Source of the DNA: Clostridia bacterium
Lineage (GTDB): Bacteria; Bacillota; Clostridia; UBA1212; UBA1255
Direction: 5' to 3'
DNA length: 64,000 bases
Assembly (NCBI GenBank): GCA_046952735.1
Contig: JBKUJR010000009.1
Span: forward strand, 4,747-68,746
The translations under genes and the position numbers were made by a program. Numbering within the stretch: the stretch's first letter is position 1; each line of letters opens with the position of its first letter. Shown here piece by piece: positions 3,812-44,109 of the stretch. Below the pieces are notes generated by a model. That model was not told where the DNA came from, did not search any database, and saw nothing but the letters and a program-made list of their open reading frames with translations.

Positions 3812-3814
3812 AAC

Positions 3815-3842: not shown

Positions 3843-3901
3843 ACAAAAGATATGAATAGTATCATTTCAAATATTATCACGTTATAAGGAGATGTTCATT
3901 T

Positions 3902-4837: not shown

Positions 4838-4867
4838 TCGATATTTTACAGGAGGATTCGGAAATCT

Positions 4868-7416: not shown

Positions 7417-7567
7417 TTGAAAAGTCCTTCGAATAACAAAATCTATTATATTGAAGAAAGTATAGCATATCTGCTGCGGGAATGCCAAAAAATTTTTCGT
7501 GGAAAAATCTTCCACCGTTTTTCCATTAATTTTCAGTATGAAATCCGGATCTCGTCTGTTGACAAAC

Positions 7568-7596
7568 TGGTTGTCTGTGAGTATACTGTGGACAGT
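7568..7596 (+). promoter_or_regulatory. Promoter TTGACA-17-TATACT for the 7633 gene
   Basis: TTGACA at 7568-7573, a 17-nt spacer, TATACT at 7591-7596. Confidence 0.55.
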
Positions 7597-7632
7597 AATT
7601 CAATTACTACATTACATAGGAGGTTATACAGT

Positions 7633-8688: not shown

Positions 8689-8725
8689 TTCTGAAAGAAT
8701 CTTGTAATACGTTCAAATAAAGAAA

Positions 8726-8770
8726 GCTGCTTCGGAACATTTCGCAGAAAGTTCCGGAGCAGTTTTTTTT
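8726..8770 (+). terminator. Intrinsic terminator after the surface-protein gene
   Basis: GCTGCTTCGGAAC-loop-GTTCCGGAGCAG (one mismatch) followed by TTTTTTTT. Confidence 0.75.
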
Positions 8771-8790
8771 GCGGGGAGGGAGCAATCGCA

Positions 8791-10488: not shown

Positions 10489-10563
10489 CGAAAAGCGGCG
10501 TTCGGGTTATAGTATTACAGAATTTAAAATACGAATTTTGCAGAATACAAAGGATTGGATCGA

Positions 10564-12021: not shown

Positions 12022-12039
12022 TGCAAAAGGGGAAGAACA

Positions 12040-17467: not shown

Positions 17468-18607
17468 ATGATCAAGCTTACGCCGCCTATGGGGTGGAAT
17501 TCATGGAATACGTTCGGCGCAGAGATCCATGAGGCGCTGATCCGGGAAATTGCGGATACGATGGTAACGACAGGGCTCCGGGAAGCCGGTTATGAATATG
17601 TCGTGCTCGACGATGCCTGGGCGGAATGGGAGCGCGGCCCGGACGGCAGGTTGCAGGCGAACCGGGAGAAATTCCCCTCCGGGATGAAAGCGCTTGCGGA
17701 GGATCTCCATGCAAAAGGACTGAAATTCGGCTTGTATTCTTCCTCCGGCCACAGAACCTGCCTGGGGAATGCGGCGAGCTATGACTATGAGTTTGAGGAT
17801 GCGGAAATGTTCGCTGCGTGGGGCGTAGACTTTCTGAAATATGATTTCTGTCACAGGCCGGAAACGCCGAGCGCCGCGTATACATACCGTAAAATGGGCG
17901 CCGCGCTTGCAAATTCCGGCAGGGATATTTTATTCAGCGCCTGCAGCTGGGGTATGGAGGAAACGCATCAATGGATCAAAACGACGGGCGCTTCCATGTG
18001 GCGTTCTACGGGGGATATCAACGATTCGTGGGAGAGCATTAAAGATGTTGCGGCGGCGCAGATTGCATTACAGCCCTATAACGGGGTCGGCTGTTTCAAC
18101 GATATGGATATGCTCGTGGTCGGGATGAACGGCAGCGGCAATGTCGGCTTAAACGGCTGCAGCTATGAAGAATACAAAACCCATTTTTCCCTCTGGGCAT
18201 TTTTGAATTCTCCGCTTATGATCGGCTGCGATGTGCGGAGCATGTCGGAAGAAACCAAAACGATCCTGATGAACCGGGAGATCATTGCAATCAACCAGGA
18301 TCCCGCAGGCCGCCAGCCGTACCTCGTGGGAGGCGTCCATTCCATGTTCGGGACAAAAACATATTGCTGGGTCAAATTATTGAACAACGGCGATTTTGCC
18401 GTAGGACTGTTCAATCTGGAAGACGTGCCGTCCCATTTGTCTTTCTCGGCGGTGGATATCGGCCTTTCGCGTGTTTCCGGGAAAAAACTCCGGCTGACCG
18501 ACCTCTGGACGGGAGAGCCCGTCATGCTGCTGGGCGGAATCGAAGTCAGCGAAATATTGCAGCCGCACTGCTGTAAAGTCATGCGGGGCAGCATCGCCGG
18601 CGCATGA
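17468..18607 (+). CDS. GH27 alpha-galactosidase (cytoplasmic, no signal peptide)
   Basis: LTPPMGWNSWNTFG, GYEYVVLDDAW and DFLKYDFC motifs characteristic of GH27 melibiases. Confidence 0.85.
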   Translation: MIKLTPPMGWNSWNTFGAEIHEALIREIADTMVTTGLREAGYEYVVLDDAWAEWERGPDGRLQANREKFPSGMKALAEDLHAKGLKFGLYSSSGHRTCLGNAASYDYEFEDAEMFAAWGVDFLKYDFCHRPETPSAAYTYRKMGAALANSGRDILFSACSWGMEETHQWIKTTGASMWRSTGDINDSWESIKDVAAAQIALQPYNGVGCFNDMDMLVVGMNGSGNVGLNGCSYEEYKTHFSLWAFLNSPLMIGCDVRSMSEETKTILMNREIIAINQDPAGRQPYLVGGVHSMFGTKTYCWVKLLNNGDFAVGLFNLEDVPSHLSFSAVDIGLSRVSGKKLRLTDLWTGEPVMLLGGIEVSEILQPHCCKVMRGSIAGA

Positions 18608-18798
18608 TATGCAGGAATTGTTTTAAAAATCTGTCGGCGGACGAAATCGCAATTTACAGGCGTCTCATACATAGAGGCGCCCAAACCTTTTTATGCCGGG
18701 AATGCCTGGCGGAAAAACTTGGATGCGGCGTAGAGAAAATAGACGAAAAAATCGCGCATTTTAAAGAAATCGGATGTACCCTATTCATCAAAAATTAA
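18604..18798 (+). CDS. Small four-Cys (CxxC...CxxC) zinc-ribbon-like protein, translationally coupled to the alpha-galactosidase gene
   Basis: 64 aa, MICRNCFKNL...FLCRECLAEKLGC. The ATGA start/stop overlap with the upstream gene is 4 nt. Confidence 0.55.
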   Translation: MICRNCFKNLSADEIAIYRRLIHRGAQTFLCRECLAEKLGCGVEKIDEKIAHFKEIGCTLFIKN

Positions 18799-18808
18799 TC
18801 CTCCTTTA

Positions 18809-18837
18809 TTGACAATTCGTTCCGTATATGGGATAAT
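18809..18837 (+). promoter_or_regulatory. Promoter TTGACA-17-GATAAT in front of the 13-gene redox operon
   Basis: TTGACA at 18809-18814, a 17-nt spacer, GATAAT at 18832-18837. Confidence 0.6.
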
Positions 18838-18859
18838 CAATCAGTGTGCGCAGACGCTT

Positions 18860-18873
18860 TTCCATATGTGGAA
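18860..18873. promoter_or_regulatory. Perfect 14-bp palindrome TTCCATATGTGGAA in the operon leader (candidate operator)
   Basis: Read directly. It lies about 23 nt downstream of the -10 element. Confidence 0.3.
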
Positions 18874-18926
18874 AATGCTGGAAAAAACGTTGCGGCGCGA
18901 TTAAAAATGAAGAAAAGAGGATGTAT

Positions 18927-19877
18927 ATGAGCAATAAGGTAACAATTATCGGAGCAGGCAGCGTCGGCTCGACAATCGCCTATACTATGACCGTAAAGGG
19001 AATTGCTTCTGAAATCGTACTCATTGACATTAACGAAGAGAAGGCGCTCGGAGAAGCGATGGATATTAAACAAGGCACTCCTTTCTGCTGTCCGGTAACC
19101 GTTTATTCCGGAACCTATGAAGACGCGAAGGGATCCGATATCGTGATCATATCCTCGGGACTTCCGAGAAAACCCGGTCAGTCCCGGCTCGACCTTGCTC
19201 AAACAAATGTCAACATTATCAAACAGATCGCGCCGGAGATCGCAAAGCATGCGCCGGAAGCGCTTTATATCATCGTCAGCAATCCTGTGGACATATTGAC
19301 ATACGCATTCATGAAATATTCTGGACTGCCGGAAAGCAAAATCGTCGGTTCGGGAACGATCCTGGATACGGCGCGCCTGCGCTATTATCTGTCCGATTAT
19401 TTTGGAGTCAGCCAGAAAAATATACACGCTTACGTCATGGGCGAGCACGGGGATTCCTCCTTTATTCCCTGGTCCCTGGCAAAAGTTGCGGCGGTAGGAA
19501 TCGAAGATTATTGCAAGGGCGTCAAATACAGCGGCAAAAACACGATGAACCCTCCCAACTACAACGAAGTCATCGACTATGTGAGAACTTCGGGAGGCAA
19601 GATCATCAAATACAAACAAGCGACGTATTACGCCGTTTCCGTATCGGTGAGCAGCGTCTGCGAATCGCTGTTTTCCGGAAAAGATACGATCATGACGCTT
19701 TCTTCGATGATGCACGGAGAGTACGGTCTCAGCGACGTATGCCTGAGCCATCTGTTCGTCGTTGGAATCGACGGCGTGAAAGGCTGCGTAACGCCTACGC
19801 TCACGGATGAAGAAGTCGCGCTGATGCATAAGAGCGGGAACGTCCTGAAAGAATTGATCGCCGGCCTTCAGTTTTAA
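18927..19877 (+). CDS. L-lactate/malate dehydrogenase family enzyme. It has an LDH-type backbone with Arg at the substrate-specificity position, so it is probably a malate dehydrogenase
   Basis: Trimmed to MSNKVTIIGAGSVGS (RBS AAAAGAGG). Aligns with Bacillus LDH throughout (NPVDILTY, GSGTILDTARLR, GEHGDS). The loop reads SGLPRKPGQSRLDL versus AGANQKPGETRLDL in LDH. Confidence 0.85.
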   Translation: MSNKVTIIGAGSVGSTIAYTMTVKGIASEIVLIDINEEKALGEAMDIKQGTPFCCPVTVYSGTYEDAKGSDIVIISSGLPRKPGQSRLDLAQTNVNIIKQIAPEIAKHAPEALYIIVSNPVDILTYAFMKYSGLPESKIVGSGTILDTARLRYYLSDYFGVSQKNIHAYVMGEHGDSSFIPWSLAKVAAVGIEDYCKGVKYSGKNTMNPPNYNEVIDYVRTSGGKIIKYKQATYYAVSVSVSSVCESLFSGKDTIMTLSSMMHGEYGLSDVCLSHLFVVGIDGVKGCVTPTLTDEEVALMHKSGNVLKELIAGLQF

Positions 19878-19910
19878 TACAAGCGTGTAATTTCAAAGGA
19901 GGAAACGAAA

Positions 19911-21275
19911 ATGGAATACCGTATCGAACGCGATTCGATGGGAGAGATGCAGGTACCTGCAGACCGCTATTGGGCGGCACAGACGCAGCGAAGCTACCAG
20001 AATTTCAAAATCGGGGGCGAAATCATGCCCCGGGAAATCACGCATGCTTTCGGAATCCTGAAGAAAGCAGCGGCAATTGCAAATTTCAATCTTGGAAAAC
20101 TGGAAGAAGAAAAGAAAAATATCATTATACAAGCATGTGATGAAGTAATCGCAGGAAAGCTCAACGACCATTTTCCGCTCGTCGTCTGGCAGACGGGAAG
20201 CGGAACGCAGTCGAATATGAATGCAAACGAAGTGATTGCAAACAGGGGGAATGAGCTTTGCGGGGCAAAATTGCTGCATCCCAACGATCACATCAATATG
20301 TCGCAGAGCTCCAACGATACGTTCCCCACAGCAATGCATATCGCGGCCGTCATCGGAATCGAGGACCAATTGTTCCCCGCGATGGACACGCTGATTGAAA
20401 CGCTGAAACGCCTTGAAAGCGAAAACGACGATATTGTCAAAAGCGGAAGAACCCATCTCCAGGACGCGACGCCGATCAAATTTTCCCAGGAAATCAGCGG
20501 TTGGAGAAATATGATCGAAAAGACGAAAGGTATGCTCGAGGCTGCGCTTCCGGGCCTCAAAGAACTGGCCCTGGGGGGCACCGCCGTCGGCACCGGACTC
20601 AACGCGCCGAAGCAATTCGGGCCGGAAGTCGCCAAGGTAGTCAGCGAGCTGACGGGAAAGAACTTTGTCTCTGCCGCCAATAAATTTCACGCGCTTACTG
20701 CGAAGGACGAACTCGTATTTGCGCACGGCGCGCTGAAGGCGCTCGCAGCAGACCTGATGAAAATCGCAAACGATGTGCGCTGGCTTGCAAGCGGCCCGCG
20801 CTGCGGCCTTGGCGAGATCCATATTCCGGAGAACGAGCCGGGAAGCTCCATTATGCCGGGTAAGGTCAACCCTACCCAGTGCGAATCCATGACCATGGTT
20901 GCCGTCCAGGTCATCGCAAACGACGTGGCGGTAGGAATGGCCGCTTCACAGGGAAACTTTGAGCTGAATGTATTCATGCCGGTATGCATTTACAACTTCC
21001 TCCAGTCCGTACGCCTGCTGGCGGATGGAATTCGTTCCTTCAACGATAATTGCGTAGCAGGTATCACGGCGAATCGGGAGAAAATGAAGCACAACCTGTA
21101 TAATTCTCTGATGCTCGTAACGGCGCTGAATCCTTATATCGGATACGATAATGCAGCAAAAACCGCTAAAAAAGCGTATAAAGAGAATATTTCACTGAAA
21201 GAAGCGTGCGTGCAGCTCGGCTTCCTGACTGCCGAAAAATTCGACGAAGTGTTCAAGCCGGAGCAAATGGTATAA
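19911..21275 (+). CDS. fumC: Class II fumarate hydratase
   Basis: 454 aa. [15 protein letters not shown] signature, SSNDTFPTA and [11 protein letters not shown]-like motifs. Confidence 0.92.
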
Positions 21276-21309
21276 AAGCCAAAAAACACAAACTGAAAGG
21301 AAAATGAAT

Positions 21310-22095
21310 ATGACTTACAGTTATTATCCTGGTTGCACATTAAAAACAAAAGCAAAAGACCTGGACCGGTACGCGAGAGCCTCAGCAGAGGCTCTTGGCG
21401 TTACGCTGGAAGAAATAGAGGATTGGCAGTGCTGCGGCGCGGTATACCCCCTGGCACAGGATGAAATCGCGACGAAGCTTTCCGCCGTGCGGGCGCTGGA
21501 CAGCGCAAAACGCCAGGGAAGGGATTTATTGACATTGTGTTCCGCCTGCCATCATGTTATAAAAAGAGTGAACGGCGATATGCTTACCAATGACGATATC
21601 CGCATGAAAGTCAATAATTATTTAAAATTAGACACGGATTACGTCGGGGAAACGAAAGTCGTTCATTATCTCGAAATGCTGAGAGATACGATAGGCTTCG
21701 ACAAAATCCGGGCGGCTGTCAAAAATCCCCTCAAAGGAAGGAAGATTGCGGCCTATTACGGCTGCCTGCTTTTACGCCCGGCGAATGTCATGCAGTTCGA
21801 CAATCCGGAAAATCCTTCGATCTTGGAGGATTTTATTCGTGCGATCGGCGCCGAGCCGGTTCTCACGCCGTACCGGAACGAATGCTGCGGCGGATATGTC
21901 GCGCTGGAAGACCGCTCCATTCCGGTAAAACGCTGCAACATGATCATGGAGTCGGCGTATGCGAAAGGCGCGGATACGGTCATAACGGCATGTCCTCTGT
22001 GCATGTACAATCTGGATGCCAACTGCACCGCAGAGAAAAGACCTGAAGTCCGTTATTTTACGGAATTGCTTGCCGAAGCGCTCGGCGTAAAATAA
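21310..22095 (+). CDS. hdrB: Heterodisulfide reductase subunit B-like protein (two CCG domains)
   Basis: YYPGC...QCCGAVY...LCSACHH and YYGCLLLRP...ECCGGY...ACPLCMYN. The second ATG (21310) has better RBS spacing than the track start at 21304. Confidence 0.85.
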   Translation: MTYSYYPGCTLKTKAKDLDRYARASAEALGVTLEEIEDWQCCGAVYPLAQDEIATKLSAVRALDSAKRQGRDLLTLCSACHHVIKRVNGDMLTNDDIRMKVNNYLKLDTDYVGETKVVHYLEMLRDTIGFDKIRAAVKNPLKGRKIAAYYGCLLLRPANVMQFDNPENPSILEDFIRAIGAEPVLTPYRNECCGGYVALEDRSIPVKRCNMIMESAYAKGADTVITACPLCMYNLDANCTAEKRPEVRYFTELLAEALGVK

Positions 22096-22107
22096 GGAGG
22101 GTTATTT

Positions 22108-22500
22108 GTGACGGAAAACGAAAGGGAATTGGCGGAACGCGTGATTCGGATCAGCGGCGTAAATACGAGGAAATGTATGAAATGCGGCAAATGTTCCGGA
22201 ACGTGTCCTTCCTATAATGAAATGGAATATCATCCGCATCAGTTCGTGGCTATGGTCGAAAAGGGCCAGATCCGGAAACTGATGGAATCCAAGTCGATCT
22301 GGACGTGCCTATCCTGCTTTGCGTGCATCGAACGGTGTCCGAGAAGCGTCGAGCCCGCAAAACTGATAGAGGCGGTACGTCTCTGCGTGATCAGGCAGCA
22401 GGGAGAGAACCATCTCAAGGCGAACCAGGTGCCCGCGCTGCTCGATGAAAACATCCCGCAGCAGGCGATCGTGAGCGCGTTCAGGAAATACAGTAAATAA
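22108..22500 (+). CDS. hdrC: Heterodisulfide reductase subunit C-like 2x[4Fe-4S] protein
   Basis: GTG start 6 nt after AGGAGGG. CMKCGKCSGTCP and CLSCFACIERCP motifs. Confidence 0.8.
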   Translation: MTENERELAERVIRISGVNTRKCMKCGKCSGTCPSYNEMEYHPHQFVAMVEKGQIRKLMESKSIWTCLSCFACIERCPRSVEPAKLIEAVRLCVIRQQGENHLKANQVPALLDENIPQQAIVSAFRKYSK

Positions 22501-22510
22501 GCGGCAAAGA

Positions 22511-24511
22511 TTGGAAGTGAGTAAATTGCAAAAAATCGGAGTATTTGTTTGTTGGTGCGGCAGCAATATTGCCGGCACCGTAGATGTAGAAAAAGTAGCG
22601 CAGAGCGTCGCCGGAGAACCGGGCGTAGTCGTATCGACAGACTACCAGTATATGTGCTCGGAGGGCGGCCAGTCCAGAATCCGGCAGGCCATCCGGGATT
22701 ACGGGCTTACGGGAATCGTGGTCTGTTCCTGTTCGCCGCGGATGCATGAAGCGACGTTCCGGAAAACGGCGCAGGCCGCCGGGCTGAACCCCTATATGGT
22801 GGAAATCGCCAACATCCGGGAACAGTGTTCCTGGATTCATAAAGATAAAGACGAAGGTACCGAAAAGGCAATTATTCTGGCGAAGGCGGCTGTTGCGAAA
22901 CTGAATTTGAATCAGCCTCTGACGGCAGGAGAAAGCAAAGTGACGAAACGTGCGCTTGTCATCGGGGGCGGTATCGCCGGGATCCAGACGGCGCTCGACA
23001 TCGCCGACGCCGGATACGAAGTGGATATCGTAGAGAAATCTCCTACGATCGGCGGAAAAATGGCCCAGCTCGATAAAACGTTTCCGACATTGGACTGTGC
23101 GGCTTGTATCCTGACGCCGAAAATGGTGGACGCCGCTGCAAACGACAAAATCAACCTGTTTACATACAGCGAAGTGGAAAGCGTAGCGGGATTTGTCGGG
23201 AACTTCACGGTAAAAATAAAGAAAAAGCCGCGGTATATCAATTCGGAGCTTTGCAGCGGGTGCGGCGTATGTACGGAGAAATGCCCTTCCCGCAAGGCGC
23301 CCAACGAATTCAACATGGGGCTCAATCATAGAGGAGCGGTCTATATTCCTTTTGCACAGGCGATTCCGAACGTACCTGTGATCGATCCGGAATACTGTAT
23401 CAAATTAAAAACGGGAAAATGCGGCCTCTGCGAGAAAAATTGTACGGCAAAAGCTATCGATTTTACGCAGAAAGAAGAAATCGTAGAACGCGAGTACGGC
23501 GCAATCGTGGCCGCGACAGGATATAAACCGATTTCTCTCGAAAACTTCGAGGAATTCGGATATGCCCAGAATAAAGACGTCATTACGTCGCTGGAACTTG
23601 AGCGCCTGATGAATGCGGCCGGACCTACGAAAGGCGTGTTGCTGCGTCCTTCGGATCAGGCACACCCGCATGAGATCGTATTCATACAATGCGTGGGGTC
23701 CCGGGACGTTTCCGGCTGCGGCAAACCGTATTGCTCCAAAATCTGCTGTATGTATACGGCAAAGCATGCGATGCTGATCCGGGATAAATATCCGGATACG
23801 AAGGTCCATGTATTTTACATAGACGTCCGGACGCCCGGAAAGAATTTCGATGAATTTTACAGGCGCGCGGTAGAGGAATACGGCGTGGATTATATAAAAG
23901 GCATGGTCGGAAAAGTCGCCGAAAAGGACGGAAAATTGCTTGTGCAGGGTTCTGACCTCATTGCGAACGAGCAAATCCTGATCGAGGCGGATCTGGTGGT
24001 TCTGGCAACGGCGATCGAGCCGGATCCGAGCGTTAAGAATTTGGCTACGATGCTGACGGCAAGTATCGATACGAACAATTTCCTGACGGAAGCGCATCCG
24101 AAGCTGCGTCCTGTGGAAAGCCCGACAGCCGGCGTTTTCCTTTCCGGCGTATGCCAGGGGCCGAAGGACATTCCGGAGACCGTAGCGCAGGCGAGCGCGG
24201 CGGCGGCAAAAGTCATCGGCTTGCTTGCGAAAGATAAGCTGACGTGCAATCCCTGTGTCGCCGGCTCCGACGAGCTTCTCTGCAATGGCTGCTCGCAGTG
24301 CGCAAACGTGTGTCCGTACGGCGCGATCGACTATATCGATAAAGAAGTCAACGACCATGGCAGACGGGAAGTCCGCAGTGTTGCAACAGTCCACGAGGCG
24401 ATCTGCCAGGGCTGCTGCGCATGTACCGTAACGTGCCCTTCCGGAGCGATGGACCTGAAAGGCTTTACGACAAGACAAATTATGGCGGAGGTTGATGCAA
24501 TATGCAGATAG
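22511..24511 (+). CDS. hdrA: Heterodisulfide reductase subunit A-like FAD/Fe-S flavoprotein
   Basis: VIGGGIAGIQTAL FAD fold. HdrA hallmark FIQCVGSRDVSGCGKPYCSKICCMY. Ferredoxin inserts CSGCGVCTEKCP/CGLCEKNC and CNGCSQCANVCP/CQGCCACTVTCP. Non-ATG start, TTG at 22511 or 22526. Confidence 0.88.
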   Translation: MEVSKLQKIGVFVCWCGSNIAGTVDVEKVAQSVAGEPGVVVSTDYQYMCSEGGQSRIRQAIRDYGLTGIVVCSCSPRMHEATFRKTAQAAGLNPYMVEIANIREQCSWIHKDKDEGTEKAIILAKAAVAKLNLNQPLTAGESKVTKRALVIGGGIAGIQTALDIADAGYEVDIVEKSPTIGGKMAQLDKTFPTLDCAACILTPKMVDAAANDKINLFTYSEVESVAGFVGNFTVKIKKKPRYINSELCSGCGVCTEKCPSRKAPNEFNMGLNHRGAVYIPFAQAIPNVPVIDPEYCIKLKTGKCGLCEKNCTAKAIDFTQKEEIVEREYGAIVAATGYKPISLENFEEFGYAQNKDVITSLELERLMNAAGPTKGVLLRPSDQAHPHEIVFIQCVGSRDVSGCGKPYCSKICCMYTAKHAMLIRDKYPDTKVHVFYIDVRTPGKNFDEFYRRAVEEYGVDYIKGMVGKVAEKDGKLLVQGSDLIANEQILIEADLVVLATAIEPDPSVKNLATMLTASIDTNNFLTEAHPKLRPVESPTAGVFLSGVCQGPKDIPETVAQASAAAAKVIGLLAKDKLTCNPCVAGSDELLCNGCSQCANVCPYGAIDYIDKEVNDHGRREVRSVATVHEAICQGCCACTVTCPSGAMDLKGFTTRQIMAEVDAICR

Positions 24512-24948
24512 AAGAAAACAACAAAGAATTCAAGCCTCTGATCGTCGCGTTTTGCTGCAATTGGTGCAGCTATGCAGGCGCCGACCTGGCCGGTTCCAGC
24601 AGGCTTTCTTATCCTGCGAATGTGAAAGTCATCCGGGTGCCGTGCTCCTGCCGCGTCAATCCTCTATTCATTTTACGCGCGTTCCAAAGAGGCGCGGACG
24701 GCGTGATTATTGCGGGCTGCCACCCCGGAGACTGCCATTATACCTCCGGAAATTATTTTGCACGAAGAAGAATGGCGCTTTTATTCAGTATGCTGGACTA
24801 TCTGGGAATCGAAAAAGAGCGTACGAGGGTGGAATGGATTTCTGCGGCGGAGGGCGCGAAATTCTCTGCAACGATGAATGAATTTGTAGCGACTATCCAC
24901 AATTTGGGCGAAAATAAGAAATTGGAGGATCTGAGATGCAAAGAATAA
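24502..24948 (+). CDS. mvhD: MvhD-like (methyl-viologen-reducing hydrogenase delta subunit family) protein = FlxD
   Basis: IVAFCCNWCSYAGADLAG...IRVPCSCRVNP...GADGVIIAGCHPGDCHY is typical of MvhD. It overlaps the hdrA end by 10 nt. Confidence 0.85.
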   Translation: MQIEENNKEFKPLIVAFCCNWCSYAGADLAGSSRLSYPANVKVIRVPCSCRVNPLFILRAFQRGADGVIIAGCHPGDCHYTSGNYFARRRMALLFSMLDYLGIEKERTRVEWISAAEGAKFSATMNEFVATIHNLGENKKLEDLRCKE

Positions 24949-25934
24949 GCAACGAAATTTTATCGAAGTGCCGTTCCTTACTGGAGGACGGTACGGCGGA
25001 TAGAGTAATGGCGTGGGAAAACGGCGAGTTTTGTTACGACGTCACGCCGGCTGTTTTTACGAAGGATACTCTGGATCAAATGATCTACGATGATTTCTGC
25101 GCTGCAAACCAGAGTAAATATTGCATCGCGGAATCGAAAAAAGATGGAAAACTCATAGCGCTGCTCAAACCGTGCGATACGTACAGCTTTAACCAGCTTT
25201 TGAAAGAAAATCGGATTAAACGGGAAAACGTTTACGTATTGGGCGTTCCGTGCAGCGGAAAAGTGGATCCGCAGGCAGCGCGCGAGCTTGGGATCAAAGG
25301 GATTACGGGAGTAAAATCCCAGGGGGATCAAGTTGTTTTCGAGACGCTTTACGGAGAAAAGACGTGTGCCAAAAAGGATGTGCTTTTCGAAAAATGCAAA
25401 GCCTGCAAAGGCAAAAAGCATATGGTATACGACGCTCTGTCGGATGAGGCGGAAGAGCCTGCGGAGGCGGTTCCAAACCAGGATTTTGAAAACCGGTTCG
25501 CATATATCGAAAATATCGAACATATGCCGGCGGAAGATCGCTTTGCATTCTGGAGAAATGAGCTTTCGCGCTGTATCCGCTGCAATGCGTGCAGAAATGT
25601 CTGTCCTGCTTGTTCCTGTATGCAGTGCGTCTTCGACAATCCCAAATCCGGCGTTGCCAGCAAAGCGAACACGGATGATTTTGAAGAGAACCTGTTTCAT
25701 ATTATCCGGGCGTTCCATGTAGCGGGAAGATGTACGGATTGCGGCGAATGTACGCGTGTGTGCCCGCAGAATATCCCGCTTCATCTGCTCAACCGGAAAT
25801 TCATCAAGGATATCAATGAATTTTACGGAGACTATCAGGCGGGCGCGGACATCTCGATCGGCGGGCCGCTGACTTCCTACACAAAACAGGACGTCGAGCC
25901 GAGTATTGTATATGAGAAAGGCGGGAAGAAATGA
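24936..25934 (+). CDS. flxC: 2x[4Fe-4S] iron-sulfur protein, FlxC-like (sulfhydrogenase beta / AsrA-related)
   Basis: CIRCNACRNVCPACSC and CTDCGECTRVCPQ motifs. Its position between mvhD and flxB matches the Flx module. Confidence 0.65.
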   Translation: MQRISNEILSKCRSLLEDGTADRVMAWENGEFCYDVTPAVFTKDTLDQMIYDDFCAANQSKYCIAESKKDGKLIALLKPCDTYSFNQLLKENRIKRENVYVLGVPCSGKVDPQAARELGIKGITGVKSQGDQVVFETLYGEKTCAKKDVLFEKCKACKGKKHMVYDALSDEAEEPAEAVPNQDFENRFAYIENIEHMPAEDRFAFWRNELSRCIRCNACRNVCPACSCMQCVFDNPKSGVASKANTDDFEENLFHIIRAFHVAGRCTDCGECTRVCPQNIPLHLLNRKFIKDINEFYGDYQAGADISIGGPLTSYTKQDVEPSIVYEKGGKK

Positions 25935-26983
25935 TGTATAAAATAGCAAAAGAACGCCTGCCCGAATTGTACGCGGCGATTGCGGCGGTAAAGAGCCTGT
26001 ATCTGCCGGTCGAAGATGCGAAGCAGTGTCTGTTCGAAAAATGGGCGCCCGAAAGCAAGGTGCGCCTTGACTGTCTCAATACTGCGAAATCGGCAAAAGA
26101 GTTATTTTTCCCGCAGAGTGAAAATCTGATTTCATTCAAAGTAAGCGGGAAGCAGATCGATCTGGTGGAAGACCGTGATCCGGCGGAGCCTTTCGTTGTA
26201 TTCGGTGTGCGCGCCTGCGACGCGAAAAGCTTTGAGATTCTCGATTCCGTTTTCCTGAGCGATCCGGCGGATACTTTTTATAAAAGCCGCCGGGAGACGG
26301 GCGTGATCGTAACTACCGCCTGTAATGAACCGGAGGAAACGTGTTTCTGCGGTGCTTTTGGAATCGATGCCGCCAGCCCTGCGGGCGGAGACGTAACTAC
26401 CTGGATTGCAGGCGATCTGTTATACTGGCTGCCTGAGACGGAGAAAGGGGAAGCGCTTACAAAGCTGCTCGGAACCCTTCTAGAGGAAACATCTGCAAAA
26501 GATGAGGAGGCGCTGGAATCGGAGAAAGAAGAAATCCGCACGGTTCTCGGCAAACTTCCGCTCGCGGATCTGAGCCTGGAGTATTTCAGCGGCGAGCGCC
26601 TTACGGAAGCGCTGAACGACGTATTTTACGCGCCGCAGTGGCAGGAGCTTTATAAAGCCTGTATTGGCTGCGGAACGTGTACGTTCCTCTGCCCGACGTG
26701 CCAGTGCTACGACATCCGCGACTTCGATACGGGACACGGAATCAAGCGCTTCCGCTGCTGGGATTCGTGTATGTATTCCGATTTTACAAAAATGGCGCAC
26801 GGAAACCCGCGCACGAGCCAGCTGGAACGCTTTCGGCAGCGTTTTATGCATAAACTCGTCTACTATCCGGCCAATAACGGCGGCACGTATTCCTGCGTAG
26901 GGTGCGGGAGATGCCTCTCGAAATGTCCGGTATCCATGAATATTGTAAAAGTAATAAAATCCTTCGGAGGTGAATCGAAATGA
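25931..26983 (+). CDS. flxB: 2x[4Fe-4S] iron-sulfur protein, FlxB-like (sulfhydrogenase beta / AsrA-related)
   Basis: CIGCGTCTFLCPTCQCYD and CVGCGRCLSKCP motifs. ATGA overlaps on both sides. Confidence 0.65.
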   Translation: MMYKIAKERLPELYAAIAAVKSLYLPVEDAKQCLFEKWAPESKVRLDCLNTAKSAKELFFPQSENLISFKVSGKQIDLVEDRDPAEPFVVFGVRACDAKSFEILDSVFLSDPADTFYKSRRETGVIVTTACNEPEETCFCGAFGIDAASPAGGDVTTWIAGDLLYWLPETEKGEALTKLLGTLLEETSAKDEEALESEKEEIRTVLGKLPLADLSLEYFSGERLTEALNDVFYAPQWQELYKACIGCGTCTFLCPTCQCYDIRDFDTGHGIKRFRCWDSCMYSDFTKMAHGNPRTSQLERFRQRFMHKLVYYPANNGGTYSCVGCGRCLSKCPVSMNIVKVIKSFGGESK

Positions 26984-27807
26984 ATCCCGATGTATTGATT
27001 CCGCAGATCGGAATCGTGACCGATATCCGGACGGATACTCCCGATGTAAAAACATTTCGGGTCAATGCTCCGGAAGGCGGAAAGTGTTTTGAACATATGC
27101 CGGGCCAGTGCGCGATGCTTTCGATGCCCGGCGTGGGAGAGGCGATGTTTTCCATCACATCTTCCCCGACGAATAAAGAATTTATGGAATTCAGCATCAA
27201 ACGGTGCGGCGGCCTGACGGAATGGCTCCATCAGATGGAAGTCGGCCAGGCGGTCACGATCCGGGGACCATACGGACGCGCATTCCCCGTGGATACGGCG
27301 CTCAAAGGCAAAGACTTGCTGTTCATCGCCGGAGGAATCGGCCTTGCGCCGCTTCGCTCCGTGATCGATTACTGCCTGGCAAAACGCGAAGATTACGGTA
27401 AAATCGACATCGTCTACGGATCGCGTTCCGCCGACGATCTGGTGGATATCGACCAGATCCGGAATGAATGGGCGCATGCCAAGAACGTGGATGTCCATCT
27501 TACGATCGACAGACCGCAGGAAGGCTGGGAAGGCCATGTGGGATTCGTTCCCGCCTACGTGAAGGAGCTGGATTTTGATACGCATAAAACGGCGCTGCTC
27601 TGCGGTCCGCCGATCATGATCAAATTCACGCTGGCTTCGCTGCAGGAGATGGGCTATGACAAGACGCAGGTTTACACGACCATGGAGCTTCGCATGAAAT
27701 GCGGCGTCGGAAAATGCGGCCGGTGCAATATCGGTTCCAAATACGTCTGCAAAGACGGACCGGTGTTCCGCTGCGACCAGCTCGATGAGCTCCCGAATGA
27801 ATATTAA
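26980..27807 (+). CDS. flxA: FNR-like FAD/NAD(P)H oxidoreductase with C-terminal [2Fe-2S] motif, FlxA-like (HydG/AsrB/PyrK family)
   Basis: FSITSSP, LLFIAGGIGLAPLRS and CGPPIM nucleotide-binding motifs. C-terminal CGVGKCGRCNIG...C. Confidence 0.75.
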   Translation: MNPDVLIPQIGIVTDIRTDTPDVKTFRVNAPEGGKCFEHMPGQCAMLSMPGVGEAMFSITSSPTNKEFMEFSIKRCGGLTEWLHQMEVGQAVTIRGPYGRAFPVDTALKGKDLLFIAGGIGLAPLRSVIDYCLAKREDYGKIDIVYGSRSADDLVDIDQIRNEWAHAKNVDVHLTIDRPQEGWEGHVGFVPAYVKELDFDTHKTALLCGPPIMIKFTLASLQEMGYDKTQVYTTMELRMKCGVGKCGRCNIGSKYVCKDGPVFRCDQLDELPNEY

Positions 27808-27839
27808 TGGATTTTTACAGAAAGTGAAGGCAAAAAGAC

Positions 27840-28514
27840 ATGGAAAAAATGGTTAATGTATTTATAATGGGTAAAAAGTATTCCGTTCCGTCAGAGCTCA
27901 CCATCATGGATGCTATGGAATATGCCGGCTACCAGCTGGTACGCGGCTGCGGCTGCAGAAACGGGTTCTGCGGCGCCTGCGCTTCCGTCTACAGAATCAA
28001 AGGCGATCCGGAACTCAAGGTCTGCCTCGCCTGTCAGACAAAAGTGGAAGAGAACATGTATGTCGCACAGATTCCGTTCTTCCCGGTCGTAAAACAAACG
28101 TACGATATCGAGGAGATCCGTCCTACGGAACAGATTATGATGCAGCTTTATCCGGAAATTTACAGCTGCATCGGCTGCAATGCCTGTACGAAGAGCTGTA
28201 CGCAGGGGCTCAATGTCATGCAATATATCGCGTACGCGCAGAGAGGCGAATACGCGAAATGCGCGGAGGAATCTTTCGACTGCGTAATGTGCGGTATTTG
28301 TTCTTCCCGTTGTCCGGCACAGATTTCTCATCCGCAGGTTGCGCTGCTGGCAAGAAGGCTGACCGGAAAATATATCGCGCCGAAATCCGCTCACCTCGAA
28401 AAACGTGTTGCGGAGATCAACCAGGGCGATTACATACAGCCGATGAAAGATCTGATGGCAAAACCGCTCGACGAGCTGAAAAATATGTACAATAACAGAG
28501 AAATAGAAAAATAA
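27840..28514 (+). CDS. frdB: Succinate dehydrogenase/fumarate reductase iron-sulfur subunit-like protein
   Basis: N-terminal [2Fe-2S] motif CRNGFCGACASVYRIKGDPELKVC, then CIGCNACTKSC and CVMCGICSSRCP. Confidence 0.75.
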   Translation: MEKMVNVFIMGKKYSVPSELTIMDAMEYAGYQLVRGCGCRNGFCGACASVYRIKGDPELKVCLACQTKVEENMYVAQIPFFPVVKQTYDIEEIRPTEQIMMQLYPEIYSCIGCNACTKSCTQGLNVMQYIAYAQRGEYAKCAEESFDCVMCGICSSRCPAQISHPQVALLARRLTGKYIAPKSAHLEKRVAEINQGDYIQPMKDLMAKPLDELKNMYNNREIEK

Positions 28515-28527
28515 GGAGGGCGGTATC

Positions 28528-30156
28528 ATGAGCGATTCATTATATACACAGGAGATGCTGGATTCAATCAAAAAGGTGGAAGCGAGCCGTCCGTCGCGGA
28601 TCGGGTTCGAGCCGAGACGCATGACGGCGGACGAGAAAGAAACGCTGTTAGCGAAATTCCATCCTGATTACAAGAAAGAAAACTTCGATACGCTTGCTAT
28701 GGGTCCGAACAAAGGAGAACGCGTTCCGAAGGAGCTGGCGGCTCTGTTGCAGGCGCACAGCCGCGTCAATCCGAAAGACGTCGATTTAAAGCATGCCGAC
28801 TACGATGTAGACGTGCTCGTAATCGGCGGCGGCGGGGCAGGGTCTTCCGCTGCGATTATGGCCCATGAGAACGGCGCGAACGTTATGGTCGTCACAAAGC
28901 TCCGCCACGGCGACGCCAATACGATGATGGCGGAAGGCGGGATCCAGGCTGCTGACAAGGAAAACGATTCGCCGATGACGCATTATGTGGATGCGCTTGG
29001 CGGCGGACATTTTAAAAATATACCGGAGCTTCTTTATAAATTGGTTACGGAAGGACCCGGCGCCGTAAAATGGCTCAATGATTTGGGCGTAATGTTCGAT
29101 AAAGAAGCGGATGGCACGATGATTACCACCCATGGCGGCGGAACCTCCAGAAAACGGATGCACGCCGCAAAGGATTATTCCGGAGCGGAAATCATGCGCG
29201 TACTGCGGGATGAAGTAATCAACAGAGGCATCCCGGTGGTAGATTTTACTGCGGCGGTGGAATTGATTCTCGATGAAAATGGGAAAGCCGCCGGCGCTGT
29301 CCTCATGAATATGGAGACAAAAGAAATTCTGATTGCGAAGGCGAAAACGGTAGTCATTGCGACAGGTGGAGCAGGCAGGCTGCATTATCAGGGTTTCCCG
29401 ACGTCCAACCACTACGGCGCTACGGCGGACGGCCTCGTGCTTGCGTATCGCGTAGGCGCTCCGCTGCTGTATGCTTATACGCTGCAATACCATCCTACCG
29501 GCGCCGCTTTCCCGGCACAGATTTTCGGCGCGCTCGTCACGGAAAAGGTCCGCTCCCTGGGCGCGATGCTGATCAACGTGGATGGCGAAGCGTTCATGCA
29601 TCCGCTGGAGACGCGGGACGTGTCGGCCGCCTCCATTATTCGGGAATGCCAGGAAAGAGGGAAGGGGATTCCGACGCCTGAAGGTTTTGGAATCTGGCTC
29701 GATACGCCGATGATCGAAGCGATCCACGGACAGGGAGCGATCGAAAAAAGAATTCCTGCGATGCTTCGGATGTTTATGAAATATGGTTACGATATGCGGG
29801 AAAAACCGATCCTCATTTACCCGACGCTCCACTATCAGAACGGGGGAATCAAGATCGGCGCAGACGGCATGTCCGAAGTGGAGAATCTCTTTGTGGCAGG
29901 GGAAGCTGTCGGCGGGATCCACGGGGAAAACAGGCTGATGGGCAATTCGCTTCTCGACATTATCGTGTTTGGCAGAAATGCAGGCATCAATGCGGCGGCG
30001 AAAGCAAAAACGGTTCAGAAGCCCGGAAAGCTTACGCTGGAACATGTGGAACGTTTCGATAAAGAACTTGCGGCAGCCGGCATCGTGACTGATAAAGTCT
30101 CTCCGCAGCTCCTTCCGCGGTATACGCACGGGAATCCGAAATACGAAGCGAAATAA
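28528..30156 (+). CDS. frdA: Fumarate reductase/succinate dehydrogenase flavoprotein-like subunit (soluble type, about 95-aa N-terminal extension)
   Basis: DVLVIGGGGAGSSAA FAD fold, ANTMMAEGGIQAA, LQYHPTG and GENRLMGNSLLDIIVFGR match SdhA/FrdA family motifs. Confidence 0.75.
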   Translation: MSDSLYTQEMLDSIKKVEASRPSRIGFEPRRMTADEKETLLAKFHPDYKKENFDTLAMGPNKGERVPKELAALLQAHSRVNPKDVDLKHADYDVDVLVIGGGGAGSSAAIMAHENGANVMVVTKLRHGDANTMMAEGGIQAADKENDSPMTHYVDALGGGHFKNIPELLYKLVTEGPGAVKWLNDLGVMFDKEADGTMITTHGGGTSRKRMHAAKDYSGAEIMRVLRDEVINRGIPVVDFTAAVELILDENGKAAGAVLMNMETKEILIAKAKTVVIATGGAGRLHYQGFPTSNHYGATADGLVLAYRVGAPLLYAYTLQYHPTGAAFPAQIFGALVTEKVRSLGAMLINVDGEAFMHPLETRDVSAASIIRECQERGKGIPTPEGFGIWLDTPMIEAIHGQGAIEKRIPAMLRMFMKYGYDMREKPILIYPTLHYQNGGIKIGADGMSEVENLFVAGEAVGGIHGENRLMGNSLLDIIVFGRNAGINAAAKAKTVQKPGKLTLEHVERFDKELAAAGIVTDKVSPQLLPRYTHGNPKYEAK

Positions 30157-30176
30157 AACGGAGGAAAACGGAGAAG

Positions 30177-31445
30177 ATGGATATATTAAACAAAATTTTT
30201 TCCTTGAGCGGCATGACGGTGGTGATATTCGGCGCGTTCCTGATCGCCGTTGTAGGGTATGCTTTGGGAAGAATCACAATCAAGGGCGTCTCGCTGGGCG
30301 CCGCCGGCGTTTTTCTGATGGCGCTGCTGTTCGGGTATCTTTTTACGCTATCGGGTCTCGTCGATATTCCGGTGCTGAAGAATTTCTTTATTGAAGATTC
30401 CGCGGCAATGAATGTAAAATATTATAAAATGATCGAGTCTGTCGGGCTCGTTCTCTTCGTCACCTCGGTCGGCTTTATCGCCGGACCGAGTTTCTTCCGA
30501 AATCTGAAAAAAAATGCGAAGTCATATGTGCTCCTGGGCGTACTAATCGTAGGCGCAGGCGCTTTGCTGTGCGCGTTGTTTTCCATGATTCCGGGAATCG
30601 GTTCGCCGTTTGGAACAGGAATCTTGTCCGGCGCGCTGACGAGTACCCCCGGTTTTTCCGCCGCAAAATCTGCGGTTGCGGAAAACGCGCAGGGCCTTGT
30701 TTCCCTTGGCCATGCGGTCGCCTATCCTTTCGGCGTGGTAGGCGTGGTTTTATTCGTTCAGTTGATTCCGAAATTCCTGAAAGCAAATATGGAAGAGGAA
30801 CGCAAAATCATGAAGAAGGGGATCGAAGCGCCTGTCGTGAAAGAAGAAACCGGCAAGAAACTTCTCTCCCTCGATGAATATGGATTGGGAACATTCGGAA
30901 TTGCCATGGTACTCGGGATCATTTTGGGTTCCATTACGATTCCGCTGTCTTCCGCCGGATTCGACGGCGCGAAATTTTCTTTGGGAAATACGGGCGGGCC
31001 TCTGATTATCGCTTTGATTCTCGGTCACTTCGGAAAAATCGGCAGACTGAGTCTGAAAGTTTCCGATAAAACTTTGAAAGTATTCCGCGAATTCGGGCTG
31101 ATGCTGTTCCTGATCGGCGCCGGCGTCGAAGGCGGCGTGGAGCTTGTTTCCCAGGTGCAGGCTTCGGAATACGGCGCTATGCTTTTGCTGTACGGATTCC
31201 TTGGCGGCGTCGCCATGACGATCGTTCCGATGTTCATCGGGTTCCTGTTTGCGAAGAAAGTATTGAAGATTAGCCTTCTCAACAATCTTGGATCTATCAC
31301 AGGCGGTATGACGAGCACGCCGGCTCTCGGCACGCTGATCGGCGTTTCCGGTACGGATGATGTGGCATCTGCGTATGCCGCTACGTATCCCGTAGCGCTC
31401 GTTTTAGTGGTACTTGCATCGCAATTGATTGCGGTATTGATTTAA
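30177..31445 (+). CDS. AAE-family (aspartate:alanine exchanger / YidE-YbjL / SucE-like) transporter without central RCK-C domains
   Basis: 422 aa and polytopic. Two homologous halves (VGFIAGPSFF... and FLIGAGVEGG...) are joined by a short hydrophilic loop, KANMEEERKIMKKGIEAPVVKEE. Confidence 0.65.
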   Translation: MDILNKIFSLSGMTVVIFGAFLIAVVGYALGRITIKGVSLGAAGVFLMALLFGYLFTLSGLVDIPVLKNFFIEDSAAMNVKYYKMIESVGLVLFVTSVGFIAGPSFFRNLKKNAKSYVLLGVLIVGAGALLCALFSMIPGIGSPFGTGILSGALTSTPGFSAAKSAVAENAQGLVSLGHAVAYPFGVVGVVLFVQLIPKFLKANMEEERKIMKKGIEAPVVKEETGKKLLSLDEYGLGTFGIAMVLGIILGSITIPLSSAGFDGAKFSLGNTGGPLIIALILGHFGKIGRLSLKVSDKTLKVFREFGLMLFLIGAGVEGGVELVSQVQASEYGAMLLLYGFLGGVAMTIVPMFIGFLFAKKVLKISLLNNLGSITGGMTSTPALGTLIGVSGTDDVASAYAATYPVALVLVVLASQLIAVLI

Positions 31446-31458
31446 AAGGAGGTACGAC

Positions 31459-31779
31459 ATGCGAATCGAGGAAAATTTATGCGGCGGGGAAGGACGCACC
31501 CGGATCAACGATCTGCTGGATGCAAAACAATTGAACGGGAAATGCGGATTATACGCTGAAATCACCGTAGAACCAGGATGCTCCATCGGATATCACGTCC
31601 ACCGGCAGGAAAGCGAAACGTATTATATTCTCGAGGGCGAAGGGGAATACGATGATAACGGAACGTGCCGGACGGTGAAAAAAGGCGACGTTACGTATAC
31701 GCCCGACGGCTGCGGCCATGCTTTGAAAAATACGGGAGCGCAGGATCTGCGGTTCATGGCATTGATTATTAAAGACTGA
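31459..31779 (+). CDS. Small cupin-domain protein
   Basis: 106 aa. GYHVHRQESETYYILEGEG...GCGHALKNTG fits the two-motif cupin pattern. RBS AAAGGAGG. Confidence 0.7.
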   Translation: MRIEENLCGGEGRTRINDLLDAKQLNGKCGLYAEITVEPGCSIGYHVHRQESETYYILEGEGEYDDNGTCRTVKKGDVTYTPDGCGHALKNTGAQDLRFMALIIKD

Positions 31780-31796
31780 TTTGAACATCCAACATT

Positions 31797-31828
31797 AAAG
31801 CCCGGCAATTTCTGCCGGGCTTTTTTAT
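31797..31828 (+). terminator. Strong intrinsic terminator ending the redox operon
   Basis: GCCCGGCA-atttc-TGCCGGGC followed by TTTTTT. Confidence 0.85.
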
Positions 31829-31899
31829 TCCTGTAATAAAAACATGGCGCCGCTTCATATCATAGGATAATATGGGGAGAAGATTGGAGGCTGTTATTT

Positions 31900-32133
31900 A
31901 TGTACCATGAAAATACAAAAATCCGGGAGATCATGCATCTGCCCGGCATTTTACAGCTCGTTGAAAAATACACGGGCAAAAGAATGAGCATGTCAACGCT
32001 GAAAATGGGCGCAAATCTCACGATCCGAACCGTAGGATCTCATCTTCACTGGACGGCTGCGCAAATGCAGGACGTCCTCGGGGAGCTCAATAAGATAGCG
32101 GAACAGCACCCATCCGCAGGCAGACAGAGATAA
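31900..32133 (+). CDS. Small hypothetical protein (loosely DUF1858-like pattern, no cysteines)
   Basis: 77-aa ORF with RBS GGAGG 7 nt upstream. It has its own position between the operon terminator and the convergent aro operon. Confidence 0.45.
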   Translation: MYHENTKIREIMHLPGILQLVEKYTGKRMSMSTLKMGANLTIRTVGSHLHWTAAQMQDVLGELNKIAEQHPSAGRQR

Positions 32134-32155
32134 TCACGTTTTTGCATGTTACGAT

Positions 32156-44024: not shown

Positions 44025-44109
44025 GCGACCGTGGCGGAATTGGCAGACGCGCACGTTTGAGGGGCGTGTGGATAACCCCGTACGAGTTCAAGTCTCGTCG
44101 GTCGCACCA
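44025..44109 (+). tRNA. tRNA-Leu (anticodon GAG), type II with long variable arm, CCA encoded
   Basis: Acceptor GCGACCG/CGGTCGC. D-arm GCG-GAATTGGCAGA-CGC. Anticodon stem CACGT/GCGTG with loop TTGAGGG. T-arm ACGAG-TTCAAGT-CTCGT. 3' end ACCA. Confidence 0.85.

Follow-up and report, generated by a model that had tools for sequence, protein, structure and literature searches.

An anchorless fumarate reductase pair encoded with a Flx-Hdr module in gut-type Clostridia: a candidate electron-bifurcating NADH:fumarate reductase

A 64,000-nucleotide stretch of a Clostridia bacterium genome (GenBank assembly GCA_046952735.1, contig JBKUJR010000009.1, positions 4,747 to 68,746 of the forward strand; hereafter the window, whose own numbering is used throughout) carries 13 consecutive plus-strand open reading frames (ORFs), at 18927-31779 in the ORF listing, that are a real, tightly packed operon and combine a malate dehydrogenase (MDH), the fumarase FumC, a full FlxABCD-HdrABC set and a fumarate reductase pair, FrdB and FrdA, with a transporter and a cupin. 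Its products very probably include a soluble, NADH-linked fumarate reductase for succinate formation. The best explanation of the whole, and in our judgement a fairly probable one, is a reductive-branch operon in which FrdBA is wired to a bifurcating Flx-Hdr module; that the enzyme bifurcates electrons to ferredoxin is, taken by itself, somewhat favoured. The operon probably lets a gut-type Clostridium gain extra energy during succinate production. The idea of a bifurcating fumarate reductase is not new, having already been hypothesised for the 'succinate operon' of Pseudoclostridium (Clostridium) thermosuccinogenes and for gene clusters of the reductive tricarboxylic acid (rTCA) cycle.

The operon encodes a complete Flx-Hdr module

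All seven FlxABCD-HdrABC subunit types are encoded side by side, as judged by Pfam and NCBIfam models, cysteine motifs and, for HdrA and HdrB, matches to PDB structures; the domain assignments that an earlier reading of this DNA, made from sequence only, had given to all 13 genes were upheld by the same domain models and motifs. In the HdrB-like subunit (21304-22095) both CCG motifs are complete, their ten cysteines (C11..C43C44G..C79xxC82 and C154..C194C195G..C230xxC233) being putative ligands for two non-cubane [4Fe-4S] clusters; the protein scores 140 bits against the SdhE profile and 138 bits against that of HdrB, both under cut-off, and 119 bits against the methanogen HdrB structure 8rvv_B. 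The HdrC-like subunit (22108-22500, GTG start), with matches to Fer4_8 and CoB_CoM_SS_C (70 bits), has two CxxCxxCxxxC motifs, as for two [4Fe-4S] clusters.

HdrA, the flavin adenine dinucleotide (FAD) and iron-sulfur subunit (22511-24511, TTG start; 666 residues), is full length: the HdrA2 model matches residues 8-664 with 791 bits, and residues 6-663 align end to end with residues 12-652 of 8rvu_a (684 bits), 5odc_A being matched as well. The hallmark CVGSRD...YCSKICC is present together with CxxCxxCxxxC motifs, and the FAD domain and all iron-sulfur-binding domains are found, as in the bifurcating type of HdrA. In methanogen Hdr, HdrA is the site of bifurcation, and to our knowledge MvhAGD-HdrABC is the only structurally proven bifurcating Hdr.

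The start of flxD overlaps the end of hdrA by 10 nt, and its product (24502-24948; FlpD, 188.6 bits) is an MvhD-like [2Fe-2S] adaptor to HdrA. Two iron-sulfur proteins with two [4Fe-4S] clusters each follow, FlxC-like (24936-25934; cysteine-rich in its N-terminal part) and FlxB-like (25931-26983; AsrA/HydB-like, with Fer4_22 at 105 bits and ShyB at 174 bits). The FlxA-like NAD(P)H-binding flavoprotein (26980-27807; HydG/AsrB-like) combines FAD_binding_6, NAD_binding_1 and DHODB_Fe-S_bind, and is thus an FNR-type FAD/NAD protein with a PyrK-type [2Fe-2S] domain.

FrdA has a fumarate-type active site and FrdB may extend the Hdr arm

The FrdA-like fumarate reductase flavoprotein (28528-30156; 542 aa) has its FAD_binding_2 domain at residues 95-475, preceded by a family-specific N-terminal extension of ~90 aa, and is without a Succ_DH_flav_C domain. 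Among curated families TfrA scores highest (324.5 bits), ahead of generic SdhA/FrdA (264) and NadB (257.6), with none at cut-off; the TfrA model NF004900, whose cut-off is 718, is covered over positions 5-409 of 546. Alignments to the SdhA chains 7d6v_A, 1nek_A and 8gs8_A place the HPTG, TE, RD, HY and NRL residues, and a family alignment that extends down to 39% identity shows no variation at H322, P323, T324, E339, R342, R363, D364, H435 and R469. In the AlphaFold model (predicted local distance difference test, pLDDT, 88; predicted template modelling score, pTM, 0.89), the N-terminal extension is predicted as ordered. A Foldseek comparison of this model with the PDB puts E. coli FrdA first (1kf6_A, TM 0.70) and SdhA and flavocytochrome c fumarate reductases after it; NadB does not occur in the 50 best fold hits. 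Its top family, its conserved catalytic residues and its E. coli FrdA fold thus bear out the identification as a fumarate-type flavoenzyme.

The histidine that carries covalent FAD (H45 of E. coli SdhA) corresponds to Asn131, and is Asn in every family member aligned, from which the FAD of FrdA is expected to be non-covalently bound. E. coli FrdA His44 mutants and flavocytochrome c3, which are without the covalent link, reportedly lose succinate oxidation and keep fumarate reduction; non-covalent FAD would therefore favour the fumarate-reducing direction over succinate oxidation.

The FrdB-like iron-sulfur subunit (27840-28514; 224 aa; Fer2_4 and Fer4 domains) combines an SdhB-like [2Fe-2S] motif, C-x4-C-x2-C...C, with two full CxxCxxCxxxC motifs; all 12 cluster cysteines are invariant down to 30% identity, and the sets fit one [2Fe-2S] and two [4Fe-4S] clusters. 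The [2Fe-2S] motif and the succession of clusters agree with an SdhB/FrdB-type subunit; sequence resemblance to such subunits is weak (Fer2_3 20 bits, cut-off 27; dhsB 33, cut-off 88; SdhB E=4e-5), as is the match to the N-terminus of TfrB (40 bits). Nevertheless, the TfrB model NF004898 is covered in succession by FrdB (19-93), HdrC (131-221) and HdrB (262-487), all far under its cut-off of 385. This serial match makes the three proteins the counterparts of what is, in a known enzyme, one electron wire to a TfrA-type flavoprotein, and substantiates the analogy to TfrB that had been drawn from the sequence alone.

With 13 of 13 ORFs assigned and gaps of at most 34 nt, the operon contains no membrane anchor gene, and its sole membrane protein is the transporter described below; the claim that a FrdC/FrdD-type anchor is missing therefore stands. 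A classical anchored quinol:fumarate reductase was dropped as a candidate, no anchor subunit and no covalent-FAD histidine being encoded.

A natural FrdB-FrdA fusion exists in a 727-aa protein (P0122) from an NCBI-derived 7.7-kb contig. It includes the N-terminal extension of FrdA, and its FrdB part is 36% identical to FrdB of the window, with the cluster cysteines retained.

Nine genes are conserved as a block

Close homologues of FrdA number in the thousands in gut metagenomes. When a single genome per GTDB species was scanned, the best 80 loci had FrdA 68-78% identical; these loci were searched by tblastn with the 13 proteins of the window, a locus counting as informative for a feature where it had enough flanking DNA. 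Nearly all hosts are metagenome-assembled genomes (MAGs) of gut or rumen Clostridia, the two isolates being Yeguia hominis NSJ-40 and Ohessyouella blattaphilus PAL227. Among loci with at least 7.4 kb upstream, the collinear arrangement HdrB-HdrC-HdrA-FlxD-FlxC-FlxB-FlxA-FrdB-FrdA is found in 56 of 57, so that the linkage of anchorless frdBA to hdr/flx genes, for which the sequence-only reading had suggested a genome search, is a property of almost every informative species-level genome.

Outside this block the gene content varies. MDH and FumC occur together in 25 of 52 informative loci, FumC without MDH in 10, MDH without FumC in 10 and neither in 7; FumC is thus present in 35 of 52, at 70-89% identity, and MDH adjoins the core in 35 of 52. 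In 40 of 67 informative loci the transporter follows frdA, and the cupin occurs in none of 67, being seen in this window only. Because the block is kept while the neighbourhoods flanking it differ between genomes, the conserved unit is the nine genes hdrBCA-flxDCBA-frdBA; of the 13-gene set originally described, this core is conserved, whereas fumC, mdh and the transporter are variable and the cupin is found only here.

Two further observations concern the outliers of this survey. One Congzhengia sp. MAG (L070, 8079-11605) holds the sole informative locus with FrdB-FrdA (71% identical) but no hdr/flx genes within 9 kb; the genes before the pair are for a CitMHS-family transporter and, further upstream, for pyrimidine biosynthesis. 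Five operons with FrdA 69-74% identical (L012, L025, L028, L081 and L083) come from MAGs labelled Planctomycetota, Synergistaceae, Bacteroidaceae, Bacteroides uniformis and Phascolarctobacterium, and represent either whole-block horizontal transfer or misbinned contigs.

FrdBA relatives occur with other partners

More distant relatives place FrdBA in other settings. A metagenome contig with a 56% identical FrdA (L087, 811-9771) has the order KorD-KorA-KorB-KorG-HdrA-MvhD-HdrC-HdrB-FrdB-FrdA, in which the Kor genes, for a four-subunit 2-oxoacid:ferredoxin oxidoreductase, sit before HdrA. Two contigs of marine sulfur-oxidiser-type Gammaproteobacteria (L085/L086, 9366-12891) encode a FrdB-like protein (212 aa), a FrdA-like protein (545 aa, 49% identical) and, in the same direction and with a 4-nt overlap with frdA, a NuoF-like protein (Complex1_51K and NADH_4Fe-4S, 418 aa); this trio looks like a three-subunit soluble NADH:fumarate reductase. 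Other distant relatives consist of FrdAB alone or of a lone flavoprotein. The Hdr link is accordingly specific to the subfamily of the window and to the Kor-Hdr type, and FrdBA is, as far as gene neighbourhoods tell, a portable module.

On the Kor-containing contig, ferredoxin-consuming and fumarate-reducing enzymes stand on either side of the Hdr core, as in rTCA clusters. Prochlorococcus sp. MIT 1201 (CP138947.1; L089, 10001-12357) has a FrdA-like protein (41% identical) and a FrdB-like protein in reversed order, in a region crowded with small unannotated ORFs and without an evident partner gene.

Proposed electron flow and alternatives

We propose that soluble FrdBA would be wired to FlxABCD-HdrABC, presumably in one physical complex, in place of a quinol-oxidising membrane anchor. 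Electrons would enter by NADH oxidation at FlxA and reach the FAD of HdrA by way of the iron-sulfur clusters in FlxB, FlxC and FlxD; there the pair would be split, one electron going uphill to ferredoxin (Fd) and the other downhill through HdrC and HdrB to the three FrdB clusters, the non-covalent FAD of FrdA and fumarate. The net reaction would be 2 NADH + Fd(ox) + fumarate -> 2 NAD+ + Fd(red) + succinate, and Rnf or a hydrogenase could draw on the reduced ferredoxin to conserve energy. Direct transfer from HdrA via HdrC/HdrB and FrdB to FrdA is the simplest reading because the operon holds a single CCG protein, HdrB, and no thiol carrier. That the operon retains a complete HdrA of the bifurcating type, although a NuoF-like input would suffice, suggests bifurcation, which would be thermodynamically easy, with about -45 to -50 kJ per 2 NADH as calculated from standard potentials.

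Several points weigh against this reading. Bifurcation by the Desulfovibrio Flx-Hdr is reportedly itself a proposal, and the drop from NADH to fumarate also suffices for a simple non-bifurcating enzyme. FrdBA is not intrinsically dependent on Hdr, since its kin have a NuoF-like partner (L085/L086) or nothing nearby (L070, L089, L091). The AlphaFold model of FrdB, built on a two-sequence alignment, is too poor for the FrdB-HdrB/HdrC interface (pLDDT 44, pTM 0.28), and the likeness to the P. thermosuccinogenes operon is one of gene order and gene sizes only. Finally, literature searches for a bifurcating fumarate reductase or a Hdr-Flx-Frd complex gave proposals and no purified or assayed complex, in agreement with the initial statement that no biochemically characterised Flx-Hdr-Frd complex was known.

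The most serious alternative, although an unlikely one, is a non-bifurcating NADH:fumarate reductase, in which the same complex would use one NADH per fumarate, HdrA acting as an iron-sulfur/flavin wire and no ferredoxin being reduced. By established thermodynamics NADH (about -320 mV) can reduce fumarate (about +30 mV) without any coupling, and simple NADH-linked versions of the reductase plausibly exist, given that FrdBA kin with a 49% identical FrdA are encoded with just a NuoF-like NADH dehydrogenase subunit. For a simple enzyme, however, such a NuoF-type input would be enough, yet seven extra genes, among them a full-length HdrA that matches a proven bifurcating HdrA from end to end, are strictly conserved with frdBA. 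Moreover, H2 suppresses succinate formation in P. thermosuccinogenes, as expected for a ferredoxin-coupled reductase (PMC7282089).

A thiol-mediated process in two steps is improbable. Here Flx-HdrABC would reduce a disulfide carrier (DsrC-like or of low molecular weight), with which a TfrAB-like combination of FrdBA and a CCG protein would then reduce fumarate. Complete CCG motifs such as the two of HdrB form the disulfide-reducing site in methanogen Hdr, the nearest curated family of FrdA is TfrA, and delivery via reduced ferredoxin and a DsrC-like protein has been raised for the rTCA cluster of Endoriftia (PMC11636981). Against this, the operon encodes a single CCG protein, and FrdB has no CCG domain of its own to oxidise a thiol; domain searches found no DsrC-like, lipoate-binding or thiol-cofactor gene in the operon or in the other scanned ORFs of the window; and a diffusible intermediate fails to explain the strict gene-by-gene synteny.

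We regard operation in reverse, with succinate and reduced ferredoxin reducing NAD+ as in syntrophic propionate or succinate oxidisers (confurcation), as very improbable: flavin-based bifurcating enzymes are generally reversible, and so are MDH and FumC, but non-covalent FAD, with N131 in place of His, disfavours succinate oxidation, the hosts are sugar-fermenting gut or rumen Clostridia (the window encodes phosphofructokinase, aldolase and glycosidases), and P. thermosuccinogenes excretes succinate. That the flavoprotein is an L-aspartate oxidase or an enoate reductase with some other substrate (of urocanate, acrylate or cinnamate type) deserves hardly any credence, and the NadB and urocanate-type identities were both dropped, for although FrdA lies under every curated cut-off (TIGR00551 for NadB, 257.6 bits against 452.75) and misses the C-terminal domain typical of SdhA/FrdA, its C4-dicarboxylate-binding and proton-transfer residues are all invariant, it has an obligate iron-sulfur partner in FrdB, unlike NadB, its closest folds are those of fumarate reductases and SdhA, and fumC, mdh and a dicarboxylate-type transporter are co-located.

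Carbon-branch and accessory genes

The remaining products would place this reductase in a cytoplasmic reductive branch from oxaloacetate to succinate that runs through MDH, FumC and fumarate reductase and ends in an exporter. The first gene (18927-19877; alternative ATG at 18921; Ldh_1_N and Ldh_1_C) scores above the cut-offs of both lactate dehydrogenase (LDH) and MDH subfamily models. Because Arg, and not the Gln of LDHs, occupies the Q102/R102 specificity position (GLPRKPGQSR), the product is an LDH-like, MDH-type NAD-dependent malate dehydrogenase, and the LDH assignment was dropped; it would convert oxaloacetate to malate. The second encodes the class II fumarate hydratase FumC (19911-21275; TIGR00979, 737 bits against a cut-off of 665), which would convert malate to fumarate.

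Downstream of frdA, an AAE-family transporter (30177-31445; two Asp-Al_Ex matches) is, from its gene context, a candidate succinate exporter or dicarboxylate exchanger. It is short (422 aa), with just two Asp-Al_Ex membrane repeats, and the full-length models of the aspartate:alanine antiporter and of YidE/YbjL (553-562 positions) match it at their two ends only. The last gene encodes a small accessory monocupin (31459-31779; Cupin_2) that resembles T. maritima TM1287 (PDB 1o4t, 'putative oxalate decarboxylase'; 84 bits); one might guess that it acts on a dicarboxylate such as oxaloacetate.

Operon layout and signals

The gaps between the 13 genes, taken from the coordinates, are 33, 28, 12, 10, -10, -13, -4, -4, 32, 13, 20 and 13 nt. 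These reproduce the list of the sequence-only reading, whose second gap of 34 nt holds for an hdrB start at the second ATG (21310); the first ATG (21304) gives 28 nt. A sigma-70-type promoter-like site, TTGACA-17-GATAAT with a TG-extended -10 element and 11 of 12 matches (18809-18837, plus strand), is the top such site within 18000-33000 and lies ~85 nt upstream of the first gene. The best intrinsic terminator in the same interval (31797-31833, plus strand) consists of a hairpin at 31797-31823, with an 11-pair stem that includes 7 GC pairs, and a T-run that begins with TTTTAT directly downstream. The totals of consensus promoter and terminator sites are about those expected from shuffled sequence, these two being notable for quality and placement and not for number; the original framing by one promoter and one terminator holds in that the best-scoring site of each kind brackets the 13 genes.

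Most of the genes have a GGAGG-like sequence 6-12 nt upstream of their start. A GGAGG-type ribosome-binding site had been claimed for every gene, which goes a little too far: the TTG start of hdrA has a weak site, only aagcggcaaaga, and the MDH gene and hdrB have AGAGGA and GAAAGGAAA. Rfam detected no regulatory RNA in the 5' leader of the operon or the rest of the window. The neighbouring genes are unrelated, with an alpha-galactosidase upstream and, on the opposite strand downstream, shikimate-pathway and aromatic amino acid genes.

Other features of the window

Elsewhere in the window, a tRNA-Leu(GAG) gene (44025-44109) is followed by ~10 kb, to 54000, at 41-43% G+C, compared with about 50% elsewhere, encoding a BadF/BcrAD-type ATPase, a SIS-domain protein, a ceramidase-like protein and a DUF4838/GH67N glycosidase-like protein; the segment 44025-54000 is possibly a genomic island that integrated at this tRNA gene. 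On the minus strand (53896-59643), two large signalling proteins are encoded next to each other, an 879-aa hybrid histidine kinase that carries two receiver domains and a PAS-GGDEF-EAL protein of 1021 aa.

Significance

If the mechanism proposed for Flx-Hdr-FrdBA is true, fumarate joins crotonyl-CoA, heterodisulfide, pyruvate and caffeyl-CoA among the high-potential acceptors that drive ferredoxin reduction, fumarate reduction with energy conservation is explained in fermenters without an encoded membrane anchor, and the enzyme represents a bifurcating class for which a biochemical demonstration was not found in the literature. Its core is found in at least 56 species-level genomes, which come from the guts of humans, ruminants, rodents and insects; the system may therefore shape succinate, propionate and H2 fluxes, and it is relevant to engineered bio-succinate production.

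In its widest form, to which we give slightly better than even chances, this reading takes the enzyme as a true bifurcating NADH:ferredoxin/fumarate oxidoreductase that is the standard succinate route of quinone-independent gut and rumen Clostridia, with a gain in ion-motive energy through Rnf, and FrdBA as a cassette placed on at least three input modules. The clostridial groups would be Oscillospiraceae, Acutalibacteraceae, Lachnospiraceae, Christensenellaceae and Ruminococcus, and the input modules would be Flx-Hdr, Kor-Hdr and NuoF-like. Since the concept has already been published as a hypothesis, the value of the present case lies in its breadth and in a cleaner comparison, not in discovery.

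Comparison with known systems

The closest known system is the 'succinate operon' of P. thermosuccinogenes (CDQ83_RS03315-RS03365; NZ_NIOI01000001.1:780948-791708; Koendjbiharie et al. 2020, PMC7282089), in which the gene for fumarate hydratase is joined by seven Flx-Hdr genes, two fumarate reductase genes and a small ORF, and which was proposed to encode a ferredoxin-reducing, NADH-dependent (bifurcating) fumarate reductase; as cited there, the proposal also appears in a 2019 preprint (Koendjbiharie & van Kranenburg, doi 10.20944/preprints201912.0288.v1). That operon is highly expressed (2,400-12,700 fragments per kilobase of transcript per million mapped reads) and co-regulated (PMC7282089 supplement). 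Both share the order fumC, hdrB, hdrC, a five-gene hdrA/flxDCBA block, frdB and frdA, with respective spans of 1366, 784, 325, 5348, 676 and 1603 nt in P. thermosuccinogenes and 1365, 792, 393, 5297, 675 and 1629 nt in the window. The former ends in a 250-nt ORF, where the window has the 422-aa AAE transporter; neither mdh nor a cupin gene has been described in it, and the neighbouring 928-nt RS03370 is not co-regulated. P. thermosuccinogenes is a thermophile, whereas the relatives of the window are gut and rumen Clostridia, and its locus is not among the best 80 of the genome scan.

FlxABCD-HdrABC of Desulfovibrio vulgaris (Ramos et al. 2015, as cited in PMC7282089 and PMC6315080) has the same seven protein types and the same proposed NADH-driven bifurcation at HdrA, but the order hdrBCA-flxDCBA of the window is inverted relative to it. 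Its proposed acceptor is the DsrC disulfide, in ethanol metabolism, in place of which the window has a dedicated FrdBA in the operon and no thiol carrier.

The thiol:fumarate reductase TfrAB of Methanothermobacter (Heim et al. 1998, as cited in PMC6315080) resembles FrdBA in being soluble, without anchor and without quinone. TfrB, however, is one polypeptide, whose counterpart in the window is three genes, two of them 5 kb from frdB; compared with TfrA, FrdA has the extra 90-aa N-terminal domain and is without the C-terminal 130 aa, in keeping with its score well under the cut-off of that family. The donor of TfrAB is coenzyme M plus coenzyme B (CoM-SH + CoB-SH), that of FrdBA presumably HdrA.

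In the rTCA clusters tfrAB, korABCD and flxABCD-hdrABC of 'Ca. Endoriftia persephone', a tubeworm symbiont, and Thioflavicoccus mobilis (Gammaproteobacteria), fumarate reductase genes are interleaved with hdr/flx genes as in the window, and direct electron shuttling from Hdr-Flx to fumarate reductase and 2-oxoglutarate:ferredoxin oxidoreductase was suggested (PMC6315080; PMC11636981). These clusters include the latter enzyme and serve autotrophic CO2 fixation, whereas the setting of the window is fermentation; the kor-hdr-frd contig L087 shows an arrangement of the rTCA kind.

HdrA, HdrB, HdrC and MvhD of methanogen MvhAGD-HdrABC (PDB 5odc, 8rvu) are homologous along their full length to the proteins of the window. 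The methanogen input is a [NiFe] hydrogenase or formate dehydrogenase in place of an NADH module, and the acceptor is the CoM-S-S-CoB heterodisulfide in place of a fumarate reductase. With E. coli FrdABCD (PDB 1kf6) the window shares the FrdA fold, the catalytic residues and an iron-sulfur subunit that likewise begins with a [2Fe-2S] domain; it differs in having no FrdC/FrdD anchor, no covalent FAD and no FrdA C-terminal domain, and in the third FrdB cluster motif, which has four Cys against the 3Fe-4S pattern of E. coli. Among these systems, the operon of the window is a further example of the kind proposed for P. thermosuccinogenes and the rTCA clusters, to which it adds MDH, an AAE transporter and a cupin.

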